A DNA stretch of 64,000 nucleotides from NCBI GenBank assembly GCA_963844965.1, contig CAWJQC010000004.1, positions 96,001 through 160,000 of the forward strand, read 5' to 3'. Position numbers and translations under genes: made by a program. This stretch comes from an uncultured bacterium (GTDB taxonomy: Bacteria; Patescibacteriota; Minisyncoccia; UBA6257; 2-01-FULL-56-20). Below are positions 2,180 to 51,696 of this stretch, in pieces (the first letter of the stretch is position 1; each line of letters opens with the position of its first letter). The notes under the pieces were generated by a model that saw only the letters and a list, made by a program, of their open reading frames with translations, was not told the DNA's origin and did not search any database.

Positions 2180-3139
2180 CTACTGCTCCATATGACCGAC
2201 AAGGGTGCATGTATAAAAGTTACCAGTGCATTGGGATGAATTAGTAACATCCCAACAAGTTGAATAAGTCTCCAGCGCGCCACTACAAGGAGTGGTATTA
2301 GCGCATGAACTGTTGTAGTAACGAATATAAGTCATATACTGCGGGCAGAAGTAAATCGGCGTCCCGCCTGTAACTTTAAGAGTGCCGGGAATGATGACGT
2401 TGCCGTTTGCTAGAACCTGTATAGCTGCTCCGGTTGTAGTAGCTGTACCAGTATTCGGCATACTGCCGCCAATACCGACGTTGCCGGCATAGTTGATGAC
2501 TAATTTATTTGATTCTGCCGCACTAGGATAATTTCCCACCATAAGCATGGCGCCCTGATTAACATCGCCCACATCGAGCAGCACCGCATCCGCATTGGTC
2601 GTAGCCGCGGTGCCGTAGAACGTGCCGGTATTGGTATCCCTGTTCTGCTCGAACTGGGTGCCGTAATCACCGGTGTTATACAAGAACGAATAGGTGGGAT
2701 TACTAAAATCGCTGTACATCTCAAGGCCGGGGCCGGTACCGGCAGTATTTGAATATGCATAAAATTGATAGTTGGCGGGCGCCGCCGCTCCCACCCCGAT
2801 TCCGGAGGTGAATAAACCTCCTCCAGTTACCGTCAGTTTCTGGGTCGGCGCCGTATTCCCGATGCCGACGTTGCCGGAGGAATTCCAAATACCGGTGCCA
2901 GGCATCGTAACGTTGCCAGTAAAGGTCGGGCTCGCTAAAAGCGCCGCTCCGGTAACCTGCGCTACCCCGTAGTCACCAGATGCCGCCACCACGGCTCCGG
3001 TTCCGCCAAATACCGAGGTGACGCCGCCGCTCGGCCAAGCCGTGATGCAATTCGCCCCGGAGATGCAATATTGAGTGGCGTTTGCGGTAACCGTTGACGT
3101 ACAGAGCGTACCCTCCGCCTGAGTTTGTGAAATACCCAC
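2180..3139 (-). CDS. C-terminal part of tail-fibre-like surface protein 1 (Cys-rich C-terminus; joined to 2973-4625 by an apparent frameshift near 3125-3140)
   Basis: GNVGIGNTAP motif continues; ORF overlaps the upstream ORF in another frame. Confidence 0.5.
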   Translation of the reverse strand: MGISQTQAEGTLCTSTVTANATQYCISGANCITAWPSGGVTSVFGGTGAVVAASGDYGVAQVTGAALLASPTFTGNVTMPGTGIWNSSGNVGIGNTAPTQKLTVTGGGLFTSGIGVGAAAPANYQFYAYSNTAGTGPGLEMYSDFSNPTYSFLYNTGDYGTQFEQNRDTNTGTFYGTAATTNADAVLLDVGDVNQGAMLMVGNYPSAAESNKLVINYAGNVGIGGSMPNTGTATTTGAAIQVLANGNVIIPGTLKVTGGTPIYFCPQYMTYIRYYNSSCANTTPCSGALETYSTCWDVTNSSQCTGNFYTCTLVGHMEQ

Positions 3140-4625
3140 CGTAGCCGCCGGAGTTGGTGGCTAATCCATAAACTCCTACGCCGTTACCTGCCGCTGACTG
3201 TCCGGCAACCCCTACCCAGTAAGAAGCGCCGACCTGTCCGCCGAGAATCCCATTCGTTGTGGCGTTGCTATTATTTCCCGTTACCGAGCCGACCCATGAT
3301 GAATTGACGGCGCTCGTGAAACTGCCTACGCCAGCAACAACCAACGGATATGCCGGCGTCGTCGTCCCGATGCCGACGTTGCCGTTCGTGATGGAGAAAT
3401 ATGGACCACCCCCCATCCCAGTGCCAAGCGCCAAATTGAGGCCATAAGATTGTGACGTCAAATCAGCGTATGTAAATGCTCCGTTGCTGGTGGTGAACTT
3501 TATCCAATCTACGTTTGACCCGTTTGTATTGTCTAGCCGTAAGGTAGACGTACTTCCACTCTGAATATCAAGTTTTGCGACCGGCGCCGTGTTCCCGATG
3601 CCGACGTTGCCGTTGTTATTTATAAACAAGGCGGGTGACGCGCCGGATGAGTCAGAACCCTGAGTCAAAAAGGCCATTGGAGAACCGTTACTGCCGATCC
3701 GGGCCCAGTTCGCAACTGCTGCCGGTCCAAGCTGTAGCAAGGCATCGGTACCGTTAGATGTCAAGTCAAACTTGGCGAATTTTGACCCGTTCACGACATG
3801 CAACGTCGTTGCCGGCGACGCCGTCCCGATGCCGACGTTGCCGCCATATGCAAGCGTCATTATTTGGGAGTACCAACTGCTGGGGTTCTGATACCCAATC
3901 GTCAAGACCGAATTATCTGACGCTGGTGCAAAAACATACCCATTATTACTGCCAGCCATATCGCGGAGCTTGAAGGCTCCAAAGACATCAAGTGTATTTT
4001 GTGGTGACGGCGTCCCGATGCCGACCGAGCCCGAGAAATACCCGCCGCCGTAGACGGAGAGGGCCTGCGGCAAGTTGCTGGCGGAGGATGTGGTAACGCC
4101 CAGAGCGGAAGAAACAAACACACTGTGGGGGAACCCGTAGGGAACGCCGGAATCGGCCTCTAGAGAATTGAACACCGCGGGCGTGACATAGCCGGCGTTG
4201 ACGGTCCCGTTAAAATTGCCGTGGATCGTGCCGTTCACGTCAAGCTGGTAGCCAGGCGACGCCGTCCCGATGCCGACAGAACCGTCATTGCGCACGACAA
4301 GTATGGGCGACGAATTCGGATAAAGGATCTTCAATGTGTAATTCGCGGCATCAGCGGACGAAGAAGCAACGATGAGGAGTTTGGTTTCCGGCAGAGGCGT
4401 GGGCGTACCAACGCCCAGATTCCCAGCCGCATTAGTGCTTACCGCTCCCGAACCGAAACCGGGGGTGGGAGGAGGAGAGGCAAACGCGTAGTAGGTAGTA
4501 GGTAGTAGGTAGTAGGTAGTAGCGAGAATGACGAAAAACAAAACGTGCGGCGCAAAACTCGGACGCACACCGTAAAACTTGCGGCGGAGCTTTTGCTGTT
4601 TTTGGAACAAATCTGCGTCCATCAT
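2973..4625 (-). CDS. tail-fibre-like surface protein 1 (N-terminal part; paralog of 8555-11680)
   Basis: N-terminus about 95% identical to gene 8555-11680. KQQKLRRKF plus hydrophobic anchor, TTYYLLPTTYY, repeated NGNVGIGT(A/T)SP motifs. Block 3346-3850 is near-identical to 9464-9960. Confidence 0.6.
   Translation of the reverse strand: MMDADLFQKQQKLRRKFYGVRPSFAPHVLFFVILATTYYLLPTTYYAFASPPPTPGFGSGAVSTNAAGNLGVGTPTPLPETKLLIVASSSADAANYTLKILYPNSSPILVVRNDGSVGIGTASPGYQLDVNGTIHGNFNGTVNAGYVTPAVFNSLEADSGVPYGFPHSVFVSSALGVTTSSASNLPQALSVYGGGYFSGSVGIGTPSPQNTLDVFGAFKLRDMAGSNNGYVFAPASDNSVLTIGYQNPSSWYSQIMTLAYGGNVGIGTASPATTLHVVNGSKFAKFDLTSNGTDALLQLGPAAVANWARIGSNGSPMAFLTQGSDSSGASPALFINNNGNVGIGNTAPVAKLDIQSGSTSTLRLDNTNGSNVDWIKFTTSNGAFTYADLTSQSYGLNLALGTGMGGGPYFSITNGNVGIGTTTPAYPLVVAGVGSFTSAVNSSWVGSVTGNNSNATTNGILGGQVGASYWVGVAGQSAAGNGVGVYGLATNSGGYGGYFTNSGGGYALYVNGYRKRHSILHLRGELHHGLAERRRHLGIWRNRSRGGGIW
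4488..4521. repeat. (GGTAGTA)n heptamer array inside the signal-peptide region of surface protein 1
   Basis: gtaggtagtaggtagtaggtagtaggtagtag encodes TTYYLLPTTYY. Confidence 0.8.
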
Positions 4626-5567: not shown

Positions 5568-5791
5568 AACGACCTCCTCAAAAAGATTTAATTTAATTGC
5601 GCAAAGCAATTTGGCTACTCCCAAGAATAACCAAATCGCTTTGCGCAAGCAATATATTCATTTTTCAAGATACTTGCCTATCTATGCTAATTATAGCACA
5701 AATAAACAACCTGTCAACCCCCACCTTTTTCCGAAAAGGTGGGGGTCAAGTGGCCGCGGCGGCTGACCCGCTGAAGCGACGATACCCTACA

Positions 5792-8242: not shown

Positions 8243-8274
8243 ATTAAGTGCATTATAGCAAACCGGCGGCGGAT

Positions 8275-8345
8275 GTCAACCCCCACACCAAACGAGGACG
8301 CGCGCCTTCGGCGCAGGACCCGGAAAGTCCTCGTTTGGTGTGGGG
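8275..8345. repeat. 20-bp-stem palindromic hairpin element (cccccacaccaaacgaggac / gtcctcgtttggtgtggggg)
   Basis: Perfect inverted repeat; related copies at ~6250-6310 and 33165-33235; second hairpin family cccccacctttttccgaaaaggtggggg at 5714 and 7733. Confidence 0.75.
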
Positions 8346-8554: not shown

Positions 8555-11500
8555 TCATTTCAGAAGAGCGTCAACTTTTTCTTGGAGCGCGGCGTTCTGC
8601 GCCTGAAGAGCGCTGATCTCTTGTTGCTGCTCCTTGATGGATTCTATCATCGGCGCGATAAGCCCAGTATAATCCAGACCAAGGGTTCCGCTCGCGTCAG
8701 TTTCCACCAACTGCGGGAAAACCGTCTGTACATTCTGCGCGGTTAAACCGAGCTGCTCTCCACTGCCCATCAGTTTTGTATCTTTCCATTCAAAGGAAAC
8801 CGGCGTCAGTAACTCAAGCTCCGCAAGCGAACCCGACAGTGGAACTATATTCTTCTTCAAACGCTCGTCGGAGCTATTTATCCACTGCCCAGCATTGTTT
8901 GTATACTCGCCGTGGGCTCCCTGAAAGTCATACGTACTGCCGGAACCATAGACGCCGATTGCAGCAGTTGAAAACACCCCATACCCTGCGGGATTACCGA
9001 AGTATCCAGCGGAACCGTTCGCGCCCGCGGTATCCGAATATCCTTCCACCCCAACCCCAGTACCAGCGTTGTAGCCATAGACGGCGGGAAGACCATTACC
9101 AGTACCGTAGCCATAGACCCCATACCCAGTCGCACCAGCAGTGCCATAGACACCATACATAGAGCCGGTGCCATAAATCCCTGCCCCAGCTTGCCCGGCG
9201 CCACCGACGCTTAATGTTGACGCCGGTGCCGTCGTCCCGATGCCGACGTTGCCGTTCGTGATGGAGAAATATGGACCACCCCCCATCCCAGTGCCAAGCG
9301 CCAAATTGAGGCCATAAGATTGTGACGTCAAATCAGCGTATGTAAATGCTCCGTTGCTGGTGGTGAACTTTATCCAATCTACGTTTGACCCGTTTGTTTT
9401 GTCTAGCCGTAAGGTAGACGTACTTCCACTCTGAATATCAAGTTTTGCGACCGGCGCCGTGTTCCCGATGCCGACGTTGCCGTTCGTGATGGAGAAATAT
9501 GGACCACCCCCCATCCCAGTGCCAAGCGCCAAATTGAGGCCATAAGATTGTGACGTCAAATCAGCGTATGTAAATGCTCCGTTGCTGGTGGTGAACTTTA
9601 TCCAATCTACGTTTGACCCGTTTGTATTGTCTAGCCGTAAGGTAGACGTACTTCCACTCTGAATATCAAGTTTTGCGACCGGCGCCGTGTTCCCGATGCC
9701 GACGTTGCCGTTGTTATTTATAAACAAGGCGGGTGACGCGCCGGATGAGTCAGAACCCTGAGTCAAAAAGGCCATTGGAGAACCGTTACTGCCGATCCGG
9801 GCCCAGTTCGCAACTGCTGCCGGTCCAAGCTGTAGCAAGGCATCGGTACCGTTAGATGTCAAGTCAAACTTGGCGAATTTTGACCCGTTCACGACATGCA
9901 ACGTCGTTGCCGGCGACGCCGTCCCGATGCCGACGTTGCCGGAACCTAAAATTGTCACGAGATCCGTTTTCGAAGAAGCGCCCGTTTTTTCACTAAACTG
10001 GAAAGCGGTGGTGGGATTGTTATAAACATTATAAAAATCAACTTCTGCATTTCCTCCCGTATAATTCCAACCGACGGCCAGACCACCAAGGCCATCACTC
10101 ACCGGTAAAGATTGCGTGTTATATGAAGTTTTCAGGAACCCACCCTCAACATCGAGCTTGTAACCTGGTGCCGCCGTCCCGATGCCGACCGAGCCCGTGA
10201 AATATCCGCCGCCGTAGACGGAAAGCGCCTGCGGACCTACGGCACTGCCCGAAGTGGCAACCGCCAACGAAGAGGAAACGACGACGCTGGCCGGGAAAAG
10301 ATAATTGCCCGTGCTGACAACGTTTGAACCGAAATACCCGGCCGCCACGTTGCTGGCGTTCACGGTGCCACCCGAAGAAGCGCAGTCGGAACCGGTGCCA
10401 GAAACAACGCCCGCAGCGCTTACGTGCAAACACTGGATAGAACCGCTGATTCCAGAAACAGTAAGGGTGTTGGCACTTGCGCCACTGCTGAAAGTTTGAA
10501 GCGCGGTCCAGGTGTTCGCATGTCCAAGATTCAATGCGGCGGACACGGCGCCCGCGGTTGGAGATATCGTTAGAGTTCCGACGCCGCTGTCGCTGACCGA
10601 GGTTACGCTGCCGCCTGCCGCAGACCAAGAAAGCGTGCCAGCGCCGTTGTTCGTGAGCACAGTACTTGCACCGCCTTGCGCGGCCGGCCAGGAATAAGTG
10701 ATACTGTTGATTTTCGCGATGTTGCCGTTATTGTCAACCTGGAATTGACTGCTCGCGCCGACGCTAAAAAGCGACGCTGGCCCCGTCGTCCCGATGCCGA
10801 CGTTGCCGCCCGCAGTTATCCTCATTCTCTCAGCAGCTCCAGCTGAAGTGTCAACCCTAAATATAAGACCATTCGTCGCAGCGCTCGCCTTGACATCTAT
10901 AAACCCTCCCCCAGAAGAATCACTACTGAAAAGTCTCATGCCGTTAACACCGACGCTCGTATCACCTCCAAAGAATAGGTTGCCGTTGACGTTGCCTGCT
11001 GCCATAGGCAAAAGCATATTTGACGTAAGCTGAAGCTGTTGAGTTGGGTTCGCCGTCCCGATGCCGACGTTGCCGCTGAAATACCCGCCGCCGTAGACGG
11101 AGAGGGCCTGCGGCAGATTGCTCGCGGTTGTCGTTGTGATTCCAAGACCGGAAGTGATAAACACGCTGTGGGGAAACCCGTAGGGAACGCCGGAATCGAG
11201 TTGGAGAGAGTTAAACACCCCGGGCGAGATGTTGCCGGCGCTTACGAGACCGCTCACGCTGCCATAAATGGACATGCCGCTGGCGAGATTCACACTGCCG
11301 GCATTAGTAAGATTTGAAGTGCCGATACCGACGGTGCCATCGTTGCGCACGACGAGAAGCGGAACAGCAGAGCCGGGCTGGACAACCTGCAGAGCGAAAT
11401 TTGAGCTGTCGGTTGACGAAGCCACAATCAGAAGCCTCACGTTGGCGGAGGGTGTTGACGTTCCAATGCCCAGATTGCCCGCGGCGTTAACGCTTATCGC

Positions 11501-11680
11501 TCCCGAACCGTAACCGGGAGTGGGAGGAGGAGAAGCAAACGCATAGTAGGTAGTAGGTAGTAGGTAGTAGGTAGTAGCGAGAATGACGAAAAACAAAACG
11601 CGCGGCGCAAAACTCGGACACGCACCGTAAAACTTGCGGCGGAGCTTTTGCTGTTTTTGGAACAAACCTGCGTCCATCAT
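8555..11680 (-). CDS. tail-fibre-like surface protein 2 with peptidase S74-type C-terminal intramolecular chaperone domain
   Basis: C-terminus has SSDERLKKNI...LTAQNVQTVFPQLV...coiled coil; repeated NGNVGIGT motifs; N-terminal anchor plus TTYYLLPTTYY. Confidence 0.7.
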   Translation of the reverse strand: MMDAGLFQKQQKLRRKFYGACPSFAPRVLFFVILATTYYLLPTTYYAFASPPPTPGYGSGAISVNAAGNLGIGTSTPSANVRLLIVASSTDSSNFALQVVQPGSAVPLLVVRNDGTVGIGTSNLTNAGSVNLASGMSIYGSVSGLVSAGNISPGVFNSLQLDSGVPYGFPHSVFITSGLGITTTTASNLPQALSVYGGGYFSGNVGIGTANPTQQLQLTSNMLLPMAAGNVNGNLFFGGDTSVGVNGMRLFSSDSSGGGFIDVKASAATNGLIFRVDTSAGAAERMRITAGGNVGIGTTGPASLFSVGASSQFQVDNNGNIAKINSITYSWPAAQGGASTVLTNNGAGTLSWSAAGGSVTSVSDSGVGTLTISPTAGAVSAALNLGHANTWTALQTFSSGASANTLTVSGISGSIQCLHVSAAGVVSGTGSDCASSGGTVNASNVAAGYFGSNVVSTGNYLFPASVVVSSSLAVATSGSAVGPQALSVYGGGYFTGSVGIGTAAPGYKLDVEGGFLKTSYNTQSLPVSDGLGGLAVGWNYTGGNAEVDFYNVYNNPTTAFQFSEKTGASSKTDLVTILGSGNVGIGTASPATTLHVVNGSKFAKFDLTSNGTDALLQLGPAAVANWARIGSNGSPMAFLTQGSDSSGASPALFINNNGNVGIGNTAPVAKLDIQSGSTSTLRLDNTNGSNVDWIKFTTSNGAFTYADLTSQSYGLNLALGTGMGGGPYFSITNGNVGIGNTAPVAKLDIQSGSTSTLRLDKTNGSNVDWIKFTTSNGAFTYADLTSQSYGLNLALGTGMGGGPYFSITNGNVGIGTTAPASTLSVGGAGQAGAGIYGTGSMYGVYGTAGATGYGVYGYGTGNGLPAVYGYNAGTGVGVEGYSDTAGANGSAGYFGNPAGYGVFSTAAIGVYGSGSTYDFQGAHGEYTNNAGQWINSSDERLKKNIVPLSGSLAELELLTPVSFEWKDTKLMGSGEQLGLTAQNVQTVFPQLVETDASGTLGLDYTGLIAPMIESIKEQQQEISALQAQNAALQEKVDALLK
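9236..9691. repeat. 228-bp (76-aa) tandem duplication inside surface protein 2 (single copy in paralog at ~3361-3590)
   Basis: Two copies differ by 1 nt (N/K); unit NGNVGIGNTAPVAKLDIQSG...GGGPYFSIT. Confidence 0.85.
11544..11577. repeat. (GGTAGTA)n heptamer array in signal-peptide region of surface protein 2
   Basis: gtagtaggtagtaggtagtaggtagtaggtagtag. Confidence 0.8.
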
Positions 11681-20317: not shown

Positions 20318-21361
20318 ATGAAGATATTAGCTATAGAAACCAGCTGTGATGAAACCGGGCTTGCCATTGTTGAGGCAAGCGGTGGTTTGCGCTCACCGCG
20401 GTTCAAGGTTTTGAAAAACCTGGTTGCTTCGCAAATCAAAATCCATCGTCCTTTTGGCGGCGTCGTTCCCAATCTCGCCAAGCGAGAACATCTGAAAAAT
20501 CTGCCGATCCTTTACAAGAAAATTGAAAATTCTAAGTTGAAAATTGAAAATTGTGACCTGGTCGTGGTAACTGTCGGTCCCGGACTGGAACCAGCCCTTT
20601 GGACCGGGATAGAATTTGCGAAAAACTTACCTGCCACCTGCCACCCACCACCCACCAAACTTGTCGGCACCAGTCACTTGGAGGGACATCTCTACAGTTT
20701 TTTGCTGCCCACGAAATCCACGAGCGGCTACGCTTCGGCACTCCTGCCGAAAGCCGTTTTTCCAGCTATAGCACTCATCGTCTCGGGCGGACACACTATA
20801 CTCTTATACATGGAATCGTTCTCCAAGTGGAAGCGGCTCGGCGAAACGCGCGATGACGCCGCGGGCGAGGCGTTTGACAAGGTCGCGCGCCTTCTTGAGC
20901 TTCCTTACCCCGGCGGGCCGGAGATAGAAAAGCTCGCAGCGAGAGGAAATCCATTCGCCATCACGTTCCCGCGCCCGATGCTTGACCAGAAAAATTACGA
21001 CTTCAGTTTCTCGGGGCTCAAAACTTCCGTCCTATACTACCTGAGAGACAATCCTCGCGCGAACAAAGCCGACGTTGCCGCGGGATTTGAGCAGGCGGTC
21101 GTTGATGTTCTCGTCGCGAAAGCCAAACGTGCCGCGCAGGAATACGGCGCCGAATCCATACTCCTCTCCGGCGGCGTCGCAGCGAACAAGCACTTGCGCA
21201 GGGCGCTCGCGCGCGCGGCTGAACTCATCGGCGCCAATTTCTTCGTTCCCGATTTCAAATACAACGCGGACAACGCCGTGATGATTGCGGCCGCCGGATA
21301 TATGGCGTATTTACGTAAGAAAAAATATAAACTTGAAGCACGGGGAAATTTAGAGATATAA
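20318..21361 (+). CDS. tsaD: tRNA N6-adenosine threonylcarbamoyltransferase TsaD
   Basis: MKILAIETSCDETGLAIV..., Kae1/Gcp fold; small low-complexity insert LPATCHPPPT. Confidence 0.85.
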   Translation: MKILAIETSCDETGLAIVEASGGLRSPRFKVLKNLVASQIKIHRPFGGVVPNLAKREHLKNLPILYKKIENSKLKIENCDLVVVTVGPGLEPALWTGIEFAKNLPATCHPPPTKLVGTSHLEGHLYSFLLPTKSTSGYASALLPKAVFPAIALIVSGGHTILLYMESFSKWKRLGETRDDAAGEAFDKVARLLELPYPGGPEIEKLAARGNPFAITFPRPMLDQKNYDFSFSGLKTSVLYYLRDNPRANKADVAAGFEQAVVDVLVAKAKRAAQEYGAESILLSGGVAANKHLRRALARAAELIGANFFVPDFKYNADNAVMIAAAGYMAYLRKKKYKLEARGNLEI

Positions 21362-36212: not shown

Positions 36213-36684
36213 CTAGCGCTTCGCCCACTGGGGAGCCCTTCGTGCTTTCTTTAAGCCGTATTTCTTTCTTTCCACCATGCGCGGGTCGCGGCGGAGGTAG
36301 CCGAGCTTACTCAGGCGCTTTTCAAAATCGGGGTTCTTCAGGGCGAGCGCGCGGGCAAGTCCCAAACGCACCGCCTCGGCTTGGGCATTGATGCCGCCGC
36401 CATAGACCTTAGCCGACACGTCATACTTGTCACCGAGCTTCATTTTCTCCAGCGGCGCGAAAGCCAGTAATATGCAAGCGCGACAGGTCAAAGTAATTCT
36501 TGTATCCTTCTTCGTTCACCAAAAACTTTCCGTGCCCGCCTAAAACTCGCACGCGCGCAATGGCGGTCTTTCTTCTTCCCACACCCTCAACGTATCTGTC
36601 CGGTTTTTTCACCGCCTTAACCGCGGAGACCTCTTTGGTTTCCTTCGTTTGGATCTTTTTTGCTGGTTCTTTCTTTGTTGGCAT
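36213..36684 (-). CDS. rpsI: 30S ribosomal protein S9 (two ORFs joined by apparent frameshift ~36430-36490)
   Basis: GRRKTAIARVRV... N-terminal part and ...YLRRDPRMVERKKYGLKKARRAPQWAKR C-terminal part, in different frames. Confidence 0.75.
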
Positions 36685-36708: not shown

Positions 36709-37055
36709 TTATTTATCAACGAAGATCAAATTCTTCAACCTTTTTTGATTCAGAAAATTTTTGGGCAGCATGTGGCGCACCGTTTCCCTGAGCGTTTTCT
36801 CCGGATCTTTGGTAAAAACCTGCTCAAAAGTCTTTTCTTTCAGGGTGCCCCATGTAGCCGGTATGGCGATAATAGATCTTCTCTTTGAACTTTTTTCCGG
36901 TAACAACGAGGATCCTTGCAATTTTTCACGTATACTTTGTCACCACCGACGAGCCGCCGCTCGTATTTCGGGCTTTTCTTACCCTGTAAAATCAAAGCTA
37001 TCTCCGAGGCCAGTCGCCCCAATATCTTGTTTTTGGCATCTATGTGATAATCCAC
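36709..37055 (-). CDS. rplM: 50S ribosomal protein L13 (two apparent +1 frameshifts within ~75 bp near 36840-36930; GTG start)
   Basis: IDAKNKILGRLASEIA... then VTGKKFKEKIYYRHTGYMG (third frame) then ...VRHMLPKN. Confidence 0.7.
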
Positions 37056-37058
37056 AGA

Positions 37059-37127
<69 letters not shown>

Positions 37128-37132
37128 CTTTA

Positions 37133-37486
37133 TTATACGAATTCCACGGCTGCCAGCCGCGAACCGTCCCTTTTTCTGGACTTTTGAAGTTTGATGATCC
37201 TGAGATATCCGCCGGCGCGCGCAGCGTAACGCGGACCCAGTTCTTCATAAATTTTATTGGCGATCCTCGGATTGTGCACGCGTTTCAAGATAAGGCGGCG
37301 TGCCGCCAAATTCTGTTTTTTCGCGATGGTGACGAGGCGCTCCACAACCGGCCTGATGGCCTTAGCTCTCGCCTCGGTAGTTTCAATTCGTCCCACCTTT
37401 ACCAAATCGTTCGCGAGATTGCGTAAAAAAGCACGCCTCTGTCCCCTTAACCTGTGAAATTTTTTCCCTTCTTTTAAATGTCTCAT
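37133..37486 (-). CDS. rplQ: 50S ribosomal protein L17
   Basis: Typical bL17 sequence. Confidence 0.85.
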   Translation of the reverse strand: MRHLKEGKKFHRLRGQRRAFLRNLANDLVKVGRIETTEARAKAIRPVVERLVTIAKKQNLAARRLILKRVHNPRIANKIYEELGPRYAARAGGYLRIIKLQKSRKRDGSRLAAVEFV

Positions 37487-37489
37487 AAA

Positions 37490-37560
37490 CTAGAATCTAG
37501 AAAGTAGAATCTAGAAAGTAGAAGTCTTAGATTCTATTTTCTATTTTCCATTTTCTAGTT
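37490..37560. repeat. TAGAAAG/TAGAATC heptamer array plus inverted partner, directly 5' of rplQ start
   Basis: ctagaatctagaaagtagaatctagaaagtagaag...attctattttctattttccattttctag. Confidence 0.75.
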
Positions 37561-37569
37561 ACGGCGCTA

Positions 37570-38337
37570 TTATGATTTCTTCGTTCTGCCGCGCTTCTTC
37601 GGCGCAGCTGCTTCGGCCTCAACTTTCGGCGCTGCGAATTCCTGGACGTTCAACGCCGAGACCTTCTCAAAATGATCTTTCAGGGCATTAGCCGATTTAT
37701 GCAAAGCCGACGACGGACTGATGGTTCCGTCGGTCTCTATCTCAACGCGCAAGCGGTTATAGTCGGTCCTGTCACCGACGCGCATGTTCTCAATTGAATA
37801 ATTGACCCTCTGCACCGGCGTGAAGATGGCGTCAATGGCTATGGTGCCGATGGAAAGCCGGCCTTCCTTCCGCGCCTCGACCGGCGAGTATCCGAGGCCG
37901 CGCTCCACCTTAACCTCCATATCAAGTTCAGCGTCTTTCGCTGTCAAGGTGGCTAGATAACTGTCCGGATTTACAAGTTCAACTTCCGAGCTCATTTTTA
38001 TCTCGCTGGCAGTCACGCCTTTCTCACCCTTTACCTTCAAGGTCAACACTTGTGGTTCATCGGTATGCATGCGGAATCTCAGTTTTTTGAAGTTCAGGCT
38101 TAGCTCTACCAGGTCCTCTTTGACTCCCGGCAAAGTTGAGAACTCATGGGGCGCGTTTTTGATCTTCAGTTCCGTAACGGCCGCGCCCGGCAGAGACGAG
38201 AGAAGCGCCCTTCGGAGCGCGTTGCCGACCGTAAGCCCGTAACCGGCGTATAATCCTTCAATCTCAAAAACGCCGTTTTTCGCGTCCTCGGAAACGGTTT
38301 TTATGGTAACGGTGGAACTTAAGTGAGAATGCTCCAT
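37570..38337 (-). CDS. rpoA: DNA-directed RNA polymerase subunit alpha, N-terminal domain only (255 aa; no alpha-CTD)
   Basis: alpha-NTD sequence ...GYGLTVGNALRRALLSSLPGAAV...; ends in a Lys/Ala-rich tail. Confidence 0.8.
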   Translation of the reverse strand: MEHSHLSSTVTIKTVSEDAKNGVFEIEGLYAGYGLTVGNALRRALLSSLPGAAVTELKIKNAPHEFSTLPGVKEDLVELSLNFKKLRFRMHTDEPQVLTLKVKGEKGVTASEIKMSSEVELVNPDSYLATLTAKDAELDMEVKVERGLGYSPVEARKEGRLSIGTIAIDAIFTPVQRVNYSIENMRVGDRTDYNRLRVEIETDGTISPSSALHKSANALKDHFEKVSALNVQEFAAPKVEAEAAAPKKRGRTKKS

Positions 38338-38353
38338 TGTTTTTTAATTATTG

Positions 38354-38959
38354 TTATTTGCTGAATGATTCGACCAATAAGTTGACATCAAACGGGGAGG
38401 TAGCCTCCGGAGGCGAAAGCACGCGCCCCTCCAATTTCTCTCTGTCCAAATGAAGCCACGCGGGCGGCTCGTATTTCTTGAGAATTTCGGCTCTCTTCTT
38501 TACCGCGTCAACGTCGCCCTGCGCAGTTATAACATCGCCAGCCTTGACCGAATACCCCGGCGATCTCACCCTGCGCTTGTTAACAAAAATATGGCCGTGG
38601 ACTATAAGCTGGCGCGCCGCTCCGCGCGAAGAAGCAAACCCAACCCTGTAAACCACGTTATCAAGCCGGCTCTCTAAAAATTCCACGATTTTCGCAGCCG
38701 AAGATCCTTTCGCTCTGACCGCCATCGCGAATATTCGCCTCAAATTACGCTCGTCCAAGCCGTAGCTCAACTTGAATTTCTTTTTTTCTTTGAGCTGCAA
38801 CCCGAATTCCGACAAACTCCTTCTTTGACGCTGCGGACCGTGAACGCCCGGCCGGTATGGCTTTCTCACAAAAGCACATTTTGGCGTGGAACAACGCTCG
38901 CCCTTCAGATTAAGGCGCTCGCCGACCGCTCTTTCTTTTTTTTCTTTGGGACCGATCAT
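38354..38959 (-). CDS. rpsD: 30S ribosomal protein S4
   Basis: Zinc-finger-like CSTPKC, S4 domain. Confidence 0.85.
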   Translation of the reverse strand: MIGPKEKKERAVGERLNLKGERCSTPKCAFVRKPYRPGVHGPQRQRRSLSEFGLQLKEKKKFKLSYGLDERNLRRIFAMAVRAKGSSAAKIVEFLESRLDNVVYRVGFASSRGAARQLIVHGHIFVNKRRVRSPGYSVKAGDVITAQGDVDAVKKRAEILKKYEPPAWLHLDREKLEGRVLSPPEATSPFDVNLLVESFSK

Positions 38960-39029
38960 AAACGTAAGTGTAAAGTTAAAAGTGTAAAGTGTAAAGTTTT
39001 TTGGCCATTTCCCATGTCGCTTTTCACAT

Positions 39030-39485
39030 TTATACTCGCCTCACTTTCGGCGGCCGGGGGCCGTTGTGCGGAATCGGCGTGACATCTTTTATGGAAAGGA
39101 CATCAAATCCCTGATTGATGAGAGACCTGATGGCGGAGTCACGACCGCCGCCTATCCCCTTCACGATTATCTCAACCTTGTTCGGACCGGTGTTCTTAAG
39201 CTTCTCCGCGATAACGGCAACAACTTTGGAAGAGGCGAAAGGTGTCGCTTTTTTCGGACCGGAAAAACCCAGGGCGCCCGCGGATGACCAGGCGAGCACG
39301 TCGCCCCGCGTATCCGTCACTGTCACGACCGTGTTGTTGTAAGACGCGTTAATGTAGACGCGGCCTTCTTCTGTTTTCTTGGATTTCTTGGCTGTCTGCG
39401 CGGCCTGCGGCGCTTGAGCCGCCGGGCTTTCTTTCCCGGTCTTAACTTCTTCAGCTGTTTGTTCTTTTATTTTTTTCTTACCCAT
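39030..39485 (-). CDS. rpsK: 30S ribosomal protein S11 (with KE-rich N-terminal extension)
   Basis: ...VTDTRGDVLAWSSAGALGFSGPKKATPFASS... Confidence 0.85.
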   Translation of the reverse strand: MGKKKIKEQTAEEVKTGKESPAAQAPQAAQTAKKSKKTEEGRVYINASYNNTVVTVTDTRGDVLAWSSAGALGFSGPKKATPFASSKVVAVIAEKLKNTGPNKVEIIVKGIGGGRDSAIRSLINQGFDVLSIKDVTPIPHNGPRPPKVRRV

Positions 39486-39487
39486 GT

Positions 39488-39871
39488 TTACTTCAATTCA
39501 ACTTTCCTCTTACCGCTGCCGGCGGTTCTCCGAACGTTTCCGCGGACGGTCCGCGAATTCGTGCGCGTCCGCTGTCCTCTTGAGGGCAGCCGCCGCAAGT
39601 GGCGCGAACCGCGATACGTCTTCAAGTCTTTTAACCTTTGGATATTTCTTTTTATAAGCTGGCGGAGTTCGCCTTCTATCGCGAAATTTTTTTCAACGAT
39701 ATTTTGGACGCGCGCAATCTCTTCGTTCGTGAGCGCGTTCGCCCTTTTATTCATGTCAACTTTGGCCGAACCCAAAATTTTCCGGCTCGCCGGCACGCCT
39801 ATGCCGTAAATATAAGTCAGCGCTATCTCAATTCTTTTATTATCTGGAATGTTAACGCCGAGAATGCGCAT
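39488..39871 (-). CDS. rpsM: 30S ribosomal protein S13
   Basis: MRILGVNIPDNKRIEIALTYIYGIG. Confidence 0.85.
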   Translation of the reverse strand: MRILGVNIPDNKRIEIALTYIYGIGVPASRKILGSAKVDMNKRANALTNEEIARVQNIVEKNFAIEGELRQLIKRNIQRLKDLKTYRGSRHLRRLPSRGQRTRTNSRTVRGNVRRTAGSGKRKVELK

Positions 39872-39872
39872 G

Positions 39873-39948
<76 letters not shown>

Positions 39949-39954
39949 CTTTAT

Positions 39955-40068
39955 TTATCCTTGTCTTTGTTTATGTTTGGGATTAACACAGACGATATAA
40001 AGCCGCCCCCTGCGCTTAACGACCTGGCAATTTTTGCAAATTTTTTTTATTGAACTTCTTACCTTCAT
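39955..40068 (-). CDS. rpmJ: 50S ribosomal protein L36 (37 aa; below ORF-track cutoff)
   Basis: Manual translation [37 protein letters not shown]; sits between infA and rpsM as expected. Confidence 0.75.
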
Positions 40069-40158: not shown

Positions 40159-40377
40159 TTATAACCTCCGCACTATTCTTCCTCTTCTGCCGTCCGGACC
40201 AAGCTCAACCAAAACCCTATCGCCGGCTAGAACCCGGATATTGTTCAGCTTCATTTTGCCCGCCAAGTGAGCCAAAACCTCCACGCCTGCCTTTTGTTTA
40301 AGGCTGACCCTGAAAGTTAGACCGGGCAATGCTTCTAAAACCGTGCCTTCCTCGGACGCTTTCATCACGTTACTCAA
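40159..40377 (-). CDS. infA: translation initiation factor IF-1
   Basis: [17 protein letters not shown]...[20 protein letters not shown]. Confidence 0.8.
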
Positions 40378-40482
40378 AAATTGAATGACGCATATATCCT
40401 ATGTGTGGGGTGGCTCAACTCACAACTTATTATGTAGATTATAAGCGATAGGGAGTATATCTGTCAATGCCTTTTCGTAACC

Positions 40483-47099: not shown

Positions 47100-47880
47100 C
47101 TAATTTGGGCGTTTAGATTTTCCTCTAATCCGAGGATGGAGCTGCCACACGGCAAAGCAACTTGCGCTTGGCTTCGTAGTCACAGCCAGAAATCCCCTGT
47201 TTTCCAAGGAACTTTTGGCCGTGACTACGATTTACGATTTTCAATGTACGCCAACATTATACATCCAAATAGTCTATTTTGTCAATCACCGCGGGCTAAA
47301 GCCCGCGGCTTGTGTTCGGCTCCTGTTCCCACTGGTTTCTGATATATTCTCTCATCGCTTTTTCGTTTTGACGGCCAACGGTTTCGGCAAAGTAACCATC
47401 CTGCCACAAGCTGTCTCCCCAGAGGAATTCTTCCAGCTCGGGAAATTCTTTTCTGACAGCCCTGGACGTACCGCCTTTGAGATAAAACACCGCTTTGGCA
47501 ACCGTCAGGGTAGCAGGAATTTGAAGCAATAGATGGACATGGTCGGGCATTATCTGCGCTTCATGGATGAACCATTTATTCATCTTGGCGGCTTGAAAGA
47601 ACAATGTCTTGAGTCGCCCGACCATGTCCCCTCGCAGTATCGAGCGGCGGTACTTTGGGCAGAAAACAACGTGGTACAAACATCGCGTATAGCTGTGGTT
47701 GCTTGGCCAGAATCCAGAGGGCATTATCTTCATTATCGCACCGGCAGAAACCAGTGGGAACAGGCAAATAAGCCCTCCGCCCCTCGCTTCGCTCGGGGCT
47801 ACGGGGTCGCCTTATCCTCGGCCTAAAGGCCGGGGCTTGCGGCGGAGCGGGTCAATGTACTATCTTGTCCTTGTTTTACA
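47100..47880. mobile_element. IS200/IS605-family element (tnpA only); approximate limits
   Basis: HUH Y1 transposase ORF; GC hairpin caccgcgggctaaagcccgcggc at 47287-47309; 20-bp inverted repeat cctgttcccactggtttctg at 47322 and 47745. Confidence 0.6.
47296..47733 (-). CDS. tnpA: IS200/IS605-family transposase TnpA (HUH Y1)
   Basis: ...YHVVFCPKYRR...HVHLLLQIP...GYFAETVG. Confidence 0.85.
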   Translation of the reverse strand: MKIMPSGFWPSNHSYTRCLYHVVFCPKYRRSILRGDMVGRLKTLFFQAAKMNKWFIHEAQIMPDHVHLLLQIPATLTVAKAVFYLKGGTSRAVRKEFPELEEFLWGDSLWQDGYFAETVGRQNEKAMREYIRNQWEQEPNTSRGL

Positions 47881-47966: not shown

Positions 47967-48003
47967 ATAAAAATCAGCGATTATATCTCGCTGATTTTTA
48001 TGT
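47967..48003. terminator. bidirectional rho-independent terminator (aaaaatcagcga...tcgctgattttt)
   Basis: 12-bp stem flanked by A- and T-runs at the rpoD 3' end. Confidence 0.6.
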
Positions 48004-49257
48004 CAGGTTCTCAAAACCTTCTAGTGCCTTTGATTTCCCATGCTCCCTAATTTTCTCCAGCGCCTTCGCCTCAATCTGGCGGATGCGCTCGCGCGTGACG
48101 CCGAAGGCCTTTCCCACTTCTTCAAGCGTGTGGTTCACGCCATCGTCCAAGCCGAAACGCATCTTGAGAATTTTCTGTTCGCGCTCCGCGAGGTCCACCA
48201 GAATTTCCTTTATCAAATCGCGGAGCAGGGCGTGCGCGGCGAGCTGAGCCGGTGTTTGGTTCCGCTCGTCGGGGATGAAATCGGAGAGCGTGGAGTCCTC
48301 CTCGTCGCCGATGGGAGTTTCAATGGACAGAACCTCCTGCGAAATTTTTTGGATGTGCCGCACCTTGTCCACTTCCAACCCCATCTCGGCGGCGATTTCT
48401 TCCGCCAAGGGTTCACGCCCGAGTTCCTGGATCAGCTGGCGGCGCGCCTGCGTGTATTTGGAAATCGTCTCCACCATGTGCACCGGAATGCGCACCGTGC
48501 GCGACTGGTCGGCGAGTGCCCGCGTAATCGCCTGCCGAATCCACCACGTCGCATACGTTGAAAATTTGAAACCCTTGCGGTAATCAAATTTCTCCACGGC
48601 GCGCGAAAGCCCGATATTCCCCTCCTGTATCAAGTCAAGAATGGAGAGGTGCGGCGTGCGGTTCACGTAACGCTTGGCGATGGAAACCACGAGTCGCAGG
48701 TTGGCTTTCATAAGTTTCTGGCGGGCGTCTTCGTCCCCACGCTCGGCGCGCTTCGCCAATTCTTTTTCTTCTGCCTTAATTAAGAGCGGGGTCTTCCCTA
48801 TTTCCTTGAGATATATCTGAACCGCGTCCGGCACCTCTCCTTCCATCGCCAAGGCGTCGTCCAATTCTTTTTGGGCGAGTTCTTCCTTTGAAAAGCCGAC
48901 GAGTGCGCTTGTTTCTATGACTTTGATGCCGGCTTTTTCCAGACGGTCGTACACTTCATCCAAAAACGCCACGTCGTCTTCTATTTTCGGAAAGTAATAG
49001 AGAATCTCATTATCTGTCACAAAACCGCGCGGCTTCCCGCGTTCCAAAAGTTCCTTCAGGGATTCTTCGCGCGCCTCGGCCGCCGCCGCGGCTTTCCTGC
49101 CTAAACGGCGGGTCTTGCGCTTGGCTTTCTTCGGCTTCGCCGAAGACCGTCGTTCCCCCCTGTGCTTGCGGTACTTCCCGCGTTTTTTCCCGGACTTTTT
49201 ATTTTCCATAACTTTATCATAAAAAACTCCCAAAACTTCACACCATATACGAAGCAA
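47998..49257 (-). CDS. rpoD: RNA polymerase sigma-70 factor
   Basis: Regions 1.2-4 present: ...[40 protein letters not shown]... Confidence 0.85.
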
Positions 49258-49879: not shown

Positions 49880-51625
49880 CTAAGATTCGTACACGGGCGC
49901 TGACAGGCCGTTCAGCTTCTCATTGATGCTCTGCAATTCCCGAATGGCGGATTCGCGGCCGGCTTCGTCGCCCACATCCTCGCGCTGCTTGACCTCATCC
50001 GCGAGCCGGCGTCTTTCTTCTTTGCAATGTTCTTTGATCAGCTCCGTTTTCAGCTCACCAAGTTCCTGCGCGCCGATATCAGCCGCACCAAGCACGATAA
50101 AATCCAAGAATCTCGTCCAAGGCGGGATCCGGAAGCTTCCTTTCTCCCTTTTGGAGAGCTTCCAAAATTTTTCCGCAATCCTTCGCAAGATAAGGAACAA
50201 TGTCATCCAAAATGCCGTAGTCGCTCTTCGCAACCGCCGCGCGCAGGAGAGTTTCGCTCACAAGTTCGCGCCGCGAATATTTCCGCGCGTGCGCATTCGA
50301 GACGTCCGTATCTTTTGAAAAGTCGCTGGTTTTAGATTCCGGTTTCGGCAAATTCATTTTTTCTGATTCCTCAATCAAAATCTTTTCGTCAATGCGCGCG
50401 CGCTTGGAAAGTTCCTTGAGCCAGAAACTTCTCTCAATCGGACTGGAGATGTTCACGATCTTGCCCAGCACAAGCCGCACATTATGGAGACCCCTGCGGC
50501 TGGAATAATCGGCTGAATTGCCTTTTTCCAAGTACTTGTCAAGATAGAATGCCATCGCCGGCACGGCTTCCTTGATGGCTTTCGTGAGATTTTCCGCTCC
50601 GGCTTCCGCGGCTTCGGCGGGATCCTTGAAGTCGGCGAACGTCGCGACCTTGACGCTGAAATCGTTGGCTTCAGCGAGGTCAATCGCCCGCTCCGAGGCC
50701 GCGGAACCGGCCGCGTCGGAATCAAAACTCAAAATAATTTCCTCGGTAAGGCGCTTAATACTCTAAGATGGTCGGCCGTAAGCGCGGTGCCGGAAGTCGC
50801 CACGGCATTCTTCACTCCGGCTTGCCAGCTCGCGAGAAAATCCATCTGCCCCTCCACGAGGAAAACCGAGCCGGCGTCGTGTATGGAATTTTTGCTTTTC
50901 CAAAATCCGTAGAGGAGACGGGACTTGTTAAAGATTGGCGTCTCCGGCGAATTCACGTACTTGCCGACGTTCTCGTTCTCAAACTGAGGAAGCAGCCGCC
51001 CGGTAAAGCCGACCACCTTGCCGAAATGATTGTGGATGGGAAACATTATCCGGCCGCGGAACCTGTCAAGAAGCAGGCCGCGCTCGGTTTTCACCGCGAG
51101 CCCGGCGCGTAAAATATCGTCCGGCGCGTAGCCCCTGTTCAAAAAATGCATGGAGAGCGCTTCCGGCTCGTTCGGCGCCCAGCCCAATTCAAACTCGTCT
51201 ATGGTTTCGGGTTTTAGCTGCCGGCCCACGAGATACTTCTTCACGACGGGAGTGCTCGTGAGCGCTTTGATATAAAATTCTTTCGCGGCGTTCTGAAGTT
51301 CAAATAAAAGTCCCGTATATTTGTGTTCGGCGGGATCAAGCCGCCTTAACTCCACGCCCGCCTTCTCGGCCAAAATCCGCAAGGCCTCGCCGAATTCCAG
51401 ATTCTCGTAGCGCATGACGAATCCGAAAATGTCGCCGCCCAAACCGCAGCCGAAGCAATGCCAGGACTGCCGTTCCGGCGAAACCATGAAAGAAGGCGTC
51501 TTCTCCTTATGGAAAGGGCAGGATGCCTTGAAATTTTTTCCGGCCGGCTGCAAATTCAAATACCCGCGCAGGAACTGCACTATGTCCAATTTCTCCTTGA
51601 TAAGCTCGGTGGTGGAGGAAGGCAT
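49880..51625 (-). CDS. dnaG: DNA primase (three ORFs joined by two apparent frameshifts at ~50730 and ~50100-50230)
   Basis: Zinc-binding CPFHKEKTPSF...CFGCG, Toprim EGQMDFLAS...SFDSDAAG continuing across the frame change. Confidence 0.7.
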
Positions 51626-51696
51626 TTGTCTTCATTGTAGGTTGTAAATTGGAAATTGGAAATTGGTTTCTGTGCGTATCTTGGGCAAGAGATAGG

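Follow-up and report, generated by a model that had tools for sequence, protein, structure and literature searches.

The C-terminal domain (CTD) of the alpha subunit of bacterial RNA polymerase (RNAP) is the textbook hub for UP elements, class I activators and many class II activators. With no more than its N-terminal domain (NTD), alpha can assemble the core enzyme and sustain basal transcription; binding to UP elements is the task of the CTD, which many activators also target (PMC8321222). Alphas naturally devoid of the CTD are recorded for the endosymbionts Hodgkinia and Tremblaya and for the rpoA of the Euglena plastid, and one line is given there to Parcubacteria (PMC8321222, PLoS One 2021). 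The source named for Parcubacteria is Nelson & Stegen 2015 (PMC4508563), the main text of which nowhere speaks of RNA polymerase. In a 2025 study devoted to how the alpha-CTD evolved, the domain is described as 'ubiquitously present across all Bacteria' (PMC12531629). Apart from the line in PMC8321222, nothing was found in the literature on the alpha-CTD or on AT-hooks in Patescibacteria or the candidate phyla radiation (CPR). Described here is the rpoA gene of an uncultured bacterium of the Patescibacteriota (Minisyncoccia), with a genome of Paceibacteria type, carried on a stretch of 64,000 nucleotides (assembly GCA_963844965.1, contig CAWJQC010000004.1, positions 96,001 to 160,000), hereafter the window. 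Its product is an NTD followed by a short tail with a basic, AT-hook-like end. The CTD-less alpha is very probably genuine and lineage-wide; the statement as a whole, in which the tail would also have taken on a function of its own, is thought probable, if not strongly so. Bare loss of the CTD is already known in passing from the line on Parcubacteria. The replacement of the domain by a spacer with a basic AT-hook-like end, the strict association of this end with CTD loss and the likely repetition of the loss appear to be undescribed. The parts of the gene, in window coordinates, are the following.

37570..38337, minus strand: rpoA coding sequence, 255 codons, ATG start, stop codon 37570-37572 (list of open reading frames, ORFs).
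37657..38337, minus strand: alpha NTD, residues 1-227, dimerisation and beta/beta' assembly platform (phmmer against PDB alphas; AlphaFold2).
37603..37656, minus strand: tail spacer, residues 228-245 (ALNVQEFAAPKVEAEAAA), Ala/Glu/Val-rich, net acidic, matching the inter-domain linker of full-length alphas.
37573..37602, minus strand: basic patch at the C-terminus, residues 246-255 (PKKRGRTKKS), AT-hook-like, Lys lying on both sides of an RGR core.
37487..37569, no strand assigned: rpoA-rplQ spacer, 83 bp, with inverted heptamer arrays.

Two Pfam domains are present in RpoA, PF01000 (insert domain; 103.8 bits, cut-off 33.9) and PF01193 (Rpb3/Rpb11-type dimerisation; 79.9 bits, cut-off 24). PF03118 (RNA_pol_A_CTD, helix-hairpin-helix) gives no match in the protein even at E<=1. 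The equivalog model TIGR02027 is passed with 245.6 bits (cut-off 227.8) over model positions 2-223 of 298. Matches to the NCBIfam rpoA models (298-344 positions) reach only the first ~225-247 positions, and the other models of this set remain under cut-off because the CTD part is missing. Alignments with PDB alpha subunits (phmmer, E ~1e-57) are confined to the NTD and linker, query residues 23-242 corresponding to E. coli residues 25-245. In the AlphaFold2 model (88-sequence alignment, mean pLDDT 87.9) residues 10-227 lie at pLDDT 87-97, the last helix spans residues 208-227, and residues 228-255 are at pLDDT 51-68 and without secondary structure. Window RpoA is, as modelled, a complete, well-folded NTD (1-227) with a disordered tail of 28 residues. 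It is clearly a bacterial RpoA, both by TIGR02027 and by its rpsD-rpoA-rplQ context. A first-pass annotation, made from the letters of the window and a list of its ORFs, had described an rpoA limited to the NTD and a Lys/Ala tail, lacking the alpha-CTD and followed by a repeat element and rplQ; the Pfam, NCBIfam and PDB alignments, the ORF list and the 83-bp heptamer-array spacer before rplQ bear this description out.

In ending after the NTD, in belonging to a reduced genome and in the expected loss of UP reading and CTD-dependent activation, the protein resembles the Hodgkinia, Tremblaya and Euglena plastid alphas. It differs from them in the highly conserved NTD and in belonging to a large, environmentally abundant radiation, and it has a conserved spacer and basic AT-hook-like end, a replacement which PMC8321222 does not describe. 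The laboratory truncation E. coli alpha(1-235) has the same domain content and forms an active core with basal transcription (PMC8321222), but is without the basic tail and fails in E. coli at UP-dependent or class I-activated promoters. Given the established roles of the two domains, an alpha consisting of the NTD would leave the polymerase active and unable to use CTD-dependent signals, that is, UP elements and class I activators. The archaeal RpoD and eukaryotic Rpb3 share the PF01193/PF01000 platform without a bacterial-type CTD, and a weak NCBIfam match of window RpoA to archaeal RpoD was obtained (E 2.7e-06); the window protein is a homodimer platform, whereas the Rpb3/Rpb11 type is a heterodimer.

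Concern over a frameshift in rpoA is reasonable, since indel-type frameshifts occur in the window assembly within 700 bp of this gene. rplM (36709-37055) occupies three frames, and GGGG/CCC runs mark its shifts, near 36915 and near 36840; rpsI (36213-36684) occupies two, with a shift near 36480 at a short homopolymer; in dnaG (50079-51625) the Toprim domain is divided between two ORFs. All three are essential genes and are intact in relatives. The frameshifts are most likely indel errors of the window assembly, and the lengths of other ORFs in the window need to be taken with care. An assembly or annotation artefact of this kind, with an indel or early stop concealing a longer rpoA, is nevertheless given next to no credence. 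L087, a 2,837-bp contig of the same organism from a Logan assembly made independently from run ERR10755942, matches window positions 39903..37067 with 1 mismatch and 0 gaps and encodes an identical 255-aa RpoA and an identical rpoA-rplQ spacer; the match being gapless, the rpoA reading frame and stop codon are reproduced. A CTD (~240 nt) cannot be accommodated between rpoA and rplQ because the spacer is 83 bp. In six frames of the window no alpha-CTD was found, either by tblastn and phmmer, for which the CTDs of E. coli and B. subtilis served as queries (best E 0.5), or with an 83-sequence CTD profile (best E 0.18, within rpsM). Homologues all end at the same place. With L087 identical, so short a spacer and a common end point, the frameshift or hidden-ORF reading is rejected. 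The first-pass annotation had itself named a frameshift artefact and a CTD in another frame downstream among the ways in which its claim could fail; the independent assembly and the six-frame searches of the window revealed neither.

Homologues of RpoA were searched for among 5.8 billion protein clusters. All of the best 120 matches, which were examined, are 252-276 aa long and contain PF01000 and PF01193 only; those that are named belong to Paceibacterota, Minisyncoccia or Patescibacteria. A species-level scan with one genome per species gave 80 loci, ~67 of them from Patescibacteria; the taxonomic labels of many metagenome-assembled genomes are unreliable, and 20 cluster representatives looked up for occurrence outside Paceibacteria yielded hardly any organism names. 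The closest scanned locus is 82% identical ('Candidatus Paceibacteria'), and Liptonbacteria stand at 69%. CTD-less alphas occur at 48 of the ~67 Patescibacteria loci, and no CTD was found in any frame of the 3-kb flanks of these 48. The closed 827-kb chromosome L003 (OY970126.1) has a gap of 2 bp between the rpoA stop and the start of rplQ. Normal full-length alphas are present at ~13 loci, e.g. Giovannonibacteria L055 and Portnoybacteria L033.

The CTD function could also be encoded elsewhere in the genome, as a free-standing or fused domain through which UP elements and activators are used in trans, or a second rpoA could be present there. Two circumstances leave room for such a gene and tell against the present interpretation to that extent: 64 kb of the genome were searched, the source contig alone being 216 kb, and metagenomes do contain PF03118 proteins that stand free. 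When the collection of 5.8 billion proteins was searched with a profile (A1) built from 14 Patescibacteria CTDs, 75 short PF03118 proteins were returned, and those on long contigs were examined. P0364 (L083, 4001-4264; also in L084) is a genuine free-standing alpha-CTD-like protein of 87 aa, located on a phage-like or mobile-element-like island, where its neighbours include genes for RNase H, for Endonuclease VII and for HNH proteins. P0358 (L081) is an artefact, its rpoA being interrupted by a scaffold gap of Ns, and P0338 is the product of a TGA-recoded genome; hits from recoded genomes are pieces of rpoA (L085). Among these long-contig cases no cellular free-standing CTD tied to CTD-less lineages was found. 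Neither the window, read in six frames, nor the flanking DNA at the 48 CTD-less loci yielded a CTD, and a CTD separated from the NTD would be without a useful tether. These results weaken the case for a CTD acting in trans, which is regarded as very improbable.

Genes with an apparently 'split alpha', in pieces of 220 aa and 84 aa or of 232 aa and 78 aa, were considered as intermediates and rejected, since they come from TGA-recoded genomes or from a gap of Ns. At loci L040, L041, L060 and L064 a conserved in-frame TGA falls exactly on the junction of NTD and CTD, and several neighbouring ribosomal protein genes contain in-frame TGAs too; one TGA of the recoded loci aligns with a Tyr/Trp position. 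They are likely genomes with TGA reassignment and a full-length alpha, not split genes. The recoded lineage (these four loci and also L085/L086) has a GC content of 29-36% and is labelled Paceibacterota or 'Saccharibacteria'. Some gene callers read the TGA as Trp and give a 309-aa alpha; the NCBI annotation divides the same gene into a 220-aa alpha and an 84-aa 'CTD-containing protein'.

The tail of window RpoA reads ...VSALNVQEFAAPKVEAEAAAPKKRGRTKKS and consists of the spacer and then the patch PKKRGRTKKS. In 119 close homologues the spacer has a mean length of 20 residues (10-28), is Ala/Glu/Val-rich and variable in sequence and carries a net charge of -1.8; the patch that follows has a net charge of +5, and at least 6 K/R in 9 residues are present in 112/119. 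Over the scanned alphas, the maximum number of K/R per 9 residues is 5-7 in all 48 CTD-less proteins, 0-3 in 11 of the 15 CTD-bearing CPR proteins and 1-3 in 14/14 non-CPR proteins. A basic patch (>=5 K/R in 9 aa) is thus found in 48/48 CTD-less against 4/29 CTD-bearing alphas. The four exceptions have Lys-rich linkers, possibly a pre-adaptation. Strongly Lys-rich linkers between the domains, their net charge ranging from +6 to +13, occur in the Portnoybacteria-like, CTD-bearing alphas of L024, L026, L033 and L058, which may represent an evolutionary intermediate toward the CTD-less, basic-tailed alpha. Treatment of the tail as filler, as in the first-pass annotation, does not stand: a terminal basic patch is the single feature conserved throughout the CTD-less alphas.

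In the subclade of the window the patch reads PKKRGRPKK, an AT-hook core R-G-R-P with basic flanks; the window copy, PKKRGRTKK, is a variant found also in two other clusters. RGRP is present in 29/119 close homologues, and a [KR]G[KR] core in 11 more. Alphas with KKRGRPKK as their last eight residues occur in three further lineages (P0154, P0214, L066), the NTDs of which are 47-50% identical to the window protein and mutually and the spacers of which are unrelated. In 51 tails outside the window clade RGRP was observed 3 times, where shuffling predicts 0.0016 occurrences. Species differ in the synonymous codons that they use for the motif, so the peptide, and not the DNA, is what selection maintains. 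Basic flanks in a disordered segment, as is usual for AT-hooks, are present in the window copy (KK-RGR-T-KK; AlphaFold2). Among the ~70 ORFs of the window, RpoA alone has a C-terminal patch of this kind.

Short K/R-rich motifs of AT-hook type are known on accessory factors of RNAP. Myxococcus CarD has HMGA-type AT-hooks. The Wbl proteins WhiB1 and WhiB7, bound to sigma-A, have a C-terminal K/R 'AT-hook' DNA-binding motif (PMC6954389). The window motif would resemble these in being attached to RNAP and, as proposed here, in contacting DNA near or upstream of -35; it differs in its location on a core subunit, whereas the Wbl and CarD motifs act alongside a normal alpha-CTD. The RGR and R-G-R-P motifs of Lsr2, H-NS and HMG-I(Y) enter the minor groove where DNA is AT-rich (PMC4466236). 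The RGR core with basic flanks is shared with them, and relatives of the window protein have the full RGRP with KK flanks. [quoted passage not shown]

Promoters were predicted by consensus in the window and the 80 loci, and AT content was measured over -65..-36 relative to the AT content of the locus. Four perfect promoters are predicted in the window.

40438..40467, minus strand: predicted operon promoter upstream of infA, TTGACA-N18-TATAAT, 12/12 consensus match.
47256-47285, minus strand: predicted perfect sigma-70 promoter, 12/12 consensus.
8252-8279, minus strand: predicted perfect sigma-70 promoter, 12/12 consensus.
5690-5717, minus strand: predicted perfect sigma-70 promoter, 12/12 consensus.

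Four perfect TTGACA-N16-18-TATAAT sequences in 64 kb compare with ~0.02 expected by chance (4^12 arithmetic), and the perfect N18 predicted promoter upstream of infA is kept at the orthologous place in 14 relatives. AT content upstream of the four is 0.30-0.63; two are preceded by GC-rich hairpins, without AT-rich DNA. AT enrichment at -65..-36 was not observed in CTD-less lineages (difference 0.00, n=28 predicted promoters) or in CTD-bearing CPR lineages (difference -0.01, n=8 predicted promoters). A UP-element analogue, that is, an AT-rich target for the tail upstream of consensus promoters, is therefore unsupported and was discarded.

The primary sigma factor gene rpoD (47998-49257; regions 1.1-4 by Pfam) has a very basic N-terminal extension of ~45 residues before region 1.1, at about 49080-49209 on the minus strand. 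The true start of rpoD is probably the ATG located 16 codons into the listed ORF. The extension fits a polymerase that carries several basic tails.

The following mode of action is proposed from the motif, its conservation and its position. The spacer of the tail is the former inter-domain linker, and the basic AT-hook-like end would be a minimal replacement of the CTD, tethered where the CTD linker leaves the NTD. On a flexible tether of 28 residues the end could plausibly extend as far as the DNA that lies upstream of the -35 element, contacting it electrostatically and through the minor groove. The contact would be mainly sequence-nonspecific, akin to the sequence-independent upstream contacts of the alpha-CTD, with no defined AT-rich element being read. 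Promoter strength would derive mainly from the near-perfect consensus core promoters.

Several observations weigh against a DNA-contacting tail. The window copy has RGRT in place of the R-G-R-P core, and most tails of the close homologues are a plain Lys-rich patch without RGRP. Pfam AT_hook (PF02178) gives no match to the window tail at E<=10 and scores 9-13 bits per motif in relatives, under the 17.4-bit cut-off; this cut-off is rarely reached by single hooks, and an artificial double motif scores 27.3 bits. AT enrichment upstream of the predicted promoters of CTD-less lineages is nil. Basic tails are not unique to alpha, the extension of rpoD being basic also, and further basic extensions are found on S11 and S9 of the same organism; the tail may mirror a general habit of its nucleic-acid-binding proteins. 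From these observations an alternative can be built, in which the CTD was lost and the basic tail makes no contact with promoter DNA. The tail would then be a linker remnant under proteome bias, a view to which the K/R-rich extensions of sigma-70, S11 and S9 and the Lys-rich linkers of the four CTD-bearing relatives lend themselves, the patch being possibly an inherited linker; or it could serve some other end, for instance binding to RNA, association with the nucleoid, interaction with an acidic partner, or solubility. The lack of an AT-rich signal upstream and of a GR core in most tails agrees with this alternative. Against it stand a patch found in every CTD-less alpha and seldom in others, KKRGRPKK in distant lineages far above the shuffling expectation and with synonymous codon turnover, and the restriction of such a C-terminal patch to RpoA among the window ORFs. 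A tail without promoter contact is regarded as rather unlikely, and a tail that touches upstream DNA is retained as the preferred interpretation.

The number of CTD losses was estimated by neighbour joining from an NTD alignment of 221 columns with 200 bootstraps. CTD-less alphas are monophyletic in 0/200 replicates. Bootstrap support is 89% for the window clade and 100% for a second CTD-less clade, with Minisyncoccales-type tails (e.g. KKKTTKKKAK); in 91.5% of replicates the latter has the CTD-bearing, TGA-recoded clade as its sister group. The sequence of L066 is placed among CTD-bearing ones. As regain of the CTD is implausible, the tree points to two losses at the least and possibly to three, with a basic tail as the outcome in every case. 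Repeated independent loss is suggested by these sequences; it counts against so reading them that a single-protein neighbour-joining tree was used, including a low-GC, TGA-recoded, compositionally odd clade. The broadest form of the proposal is put forward tentatively and with more doubt than belief. In it, a large part of the Paceibacteria would have discarded the CTD at least 2 times and each time replaced it by an acidic spacer and a basic patch (an AT-hook in several lineages) tethering RNAP to upstream DNA; CTD-mediated activation would be absent, with reliance on near-perfect core promoters and on the basic tails of alpha and sigma.

The gene lies in an operon of the usual alpha-operon layout, in the order infA-rpmJ-rpsM-rpsK-rpsD-rpoA-rplQ, then rplM and rpsI. 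The conserved rpsK-rpsD-rpoA-rplQ arrangement is present in the window, with an identical order in related loci. The remaining members are located as follows.

40159-40377: infA, operon member.
39955-40068: rpmJ, operon member.
39488-39871: rpsM, operon member.
39030-39485: rpsK, operon member.
38354..38959, minus strand: rpsD (S4), the usual gene before rpoA (PF00163 + PF01479).
37133..37486, minus strand: rplQ (L17), the usual gene after rpoA (PF01196, 104.5 bits).

The rpoA-rplQ spacer contains arrays of period 7/14 (TRF) at 37487-37557 and is predicted to fold into a hairpin of -24.3 kcal/mol on the minus strand (z -3.95) and -27.1 kcal/mol on the plus strand (z -3.75). In the window there are 17 period-7 tandem arrays of 3-8 copies, several of them 100% regular, mostly as inverted pairs that form hairpins in intergenic spacers.

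4488-4522/4633-4656: period-7 inverted pair.
11544-11577/11688-11740: period-7 inverted pair.
13746-13786/14208-14238: period-7 inverted pair.
26296-26333/26360-26392: period-7 inverted pair.
37060-37092/37104-37126: period-7 inverted pair.
39874-39907/39919-39937: period-7 inverted pair.
37487-37557, 38966-38997, 20518-20553 and 51642-51666: further period-7 arrays.

In the ribosomal operon, read along its coding strand, (CUACUUU)n forms the 3' arm and stops 3-8 nt before the rplM and rpsM start codons, and no Shine-Dalgarno sequence is visible before these two starts at the heptamer arrays. The repeat in the rpsD-rpsK spacer folds no better than shuffles. The short-read contig L087 breaks exactly at two heptamer arrays. 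Period-7 arrays with other heptamers occur in 26/67 related Patescibacteria loci, often directly upstream of rpoA. A tandem duplication of 228 bp (9223-9712; 2.1 copies, 98% identical) lies in an ORF of 1041 aa (8555-11680, minus strand). This ORF and one of 550 aa (2973-4625, minus strand) have a common N-terminus, MMDA[DG]LFQKQQKLRRKFYG..., and the same flanking heptamer arrays; they are therefore considered paralogous, with duplicated 5' regions.

An abundant environmental radiation without the CTD means that bacterial transcription runs without this hub outside degenerate endosymbionts. The regulatory logic predicted for such organisms is one of few or no CTD-dependent activators and of core promoters of consensus strength. 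If the tail does contact upstream DNA, these lineages would constitute a natural experiment on a minimal substitute for the sequence-independent function of the CTD.

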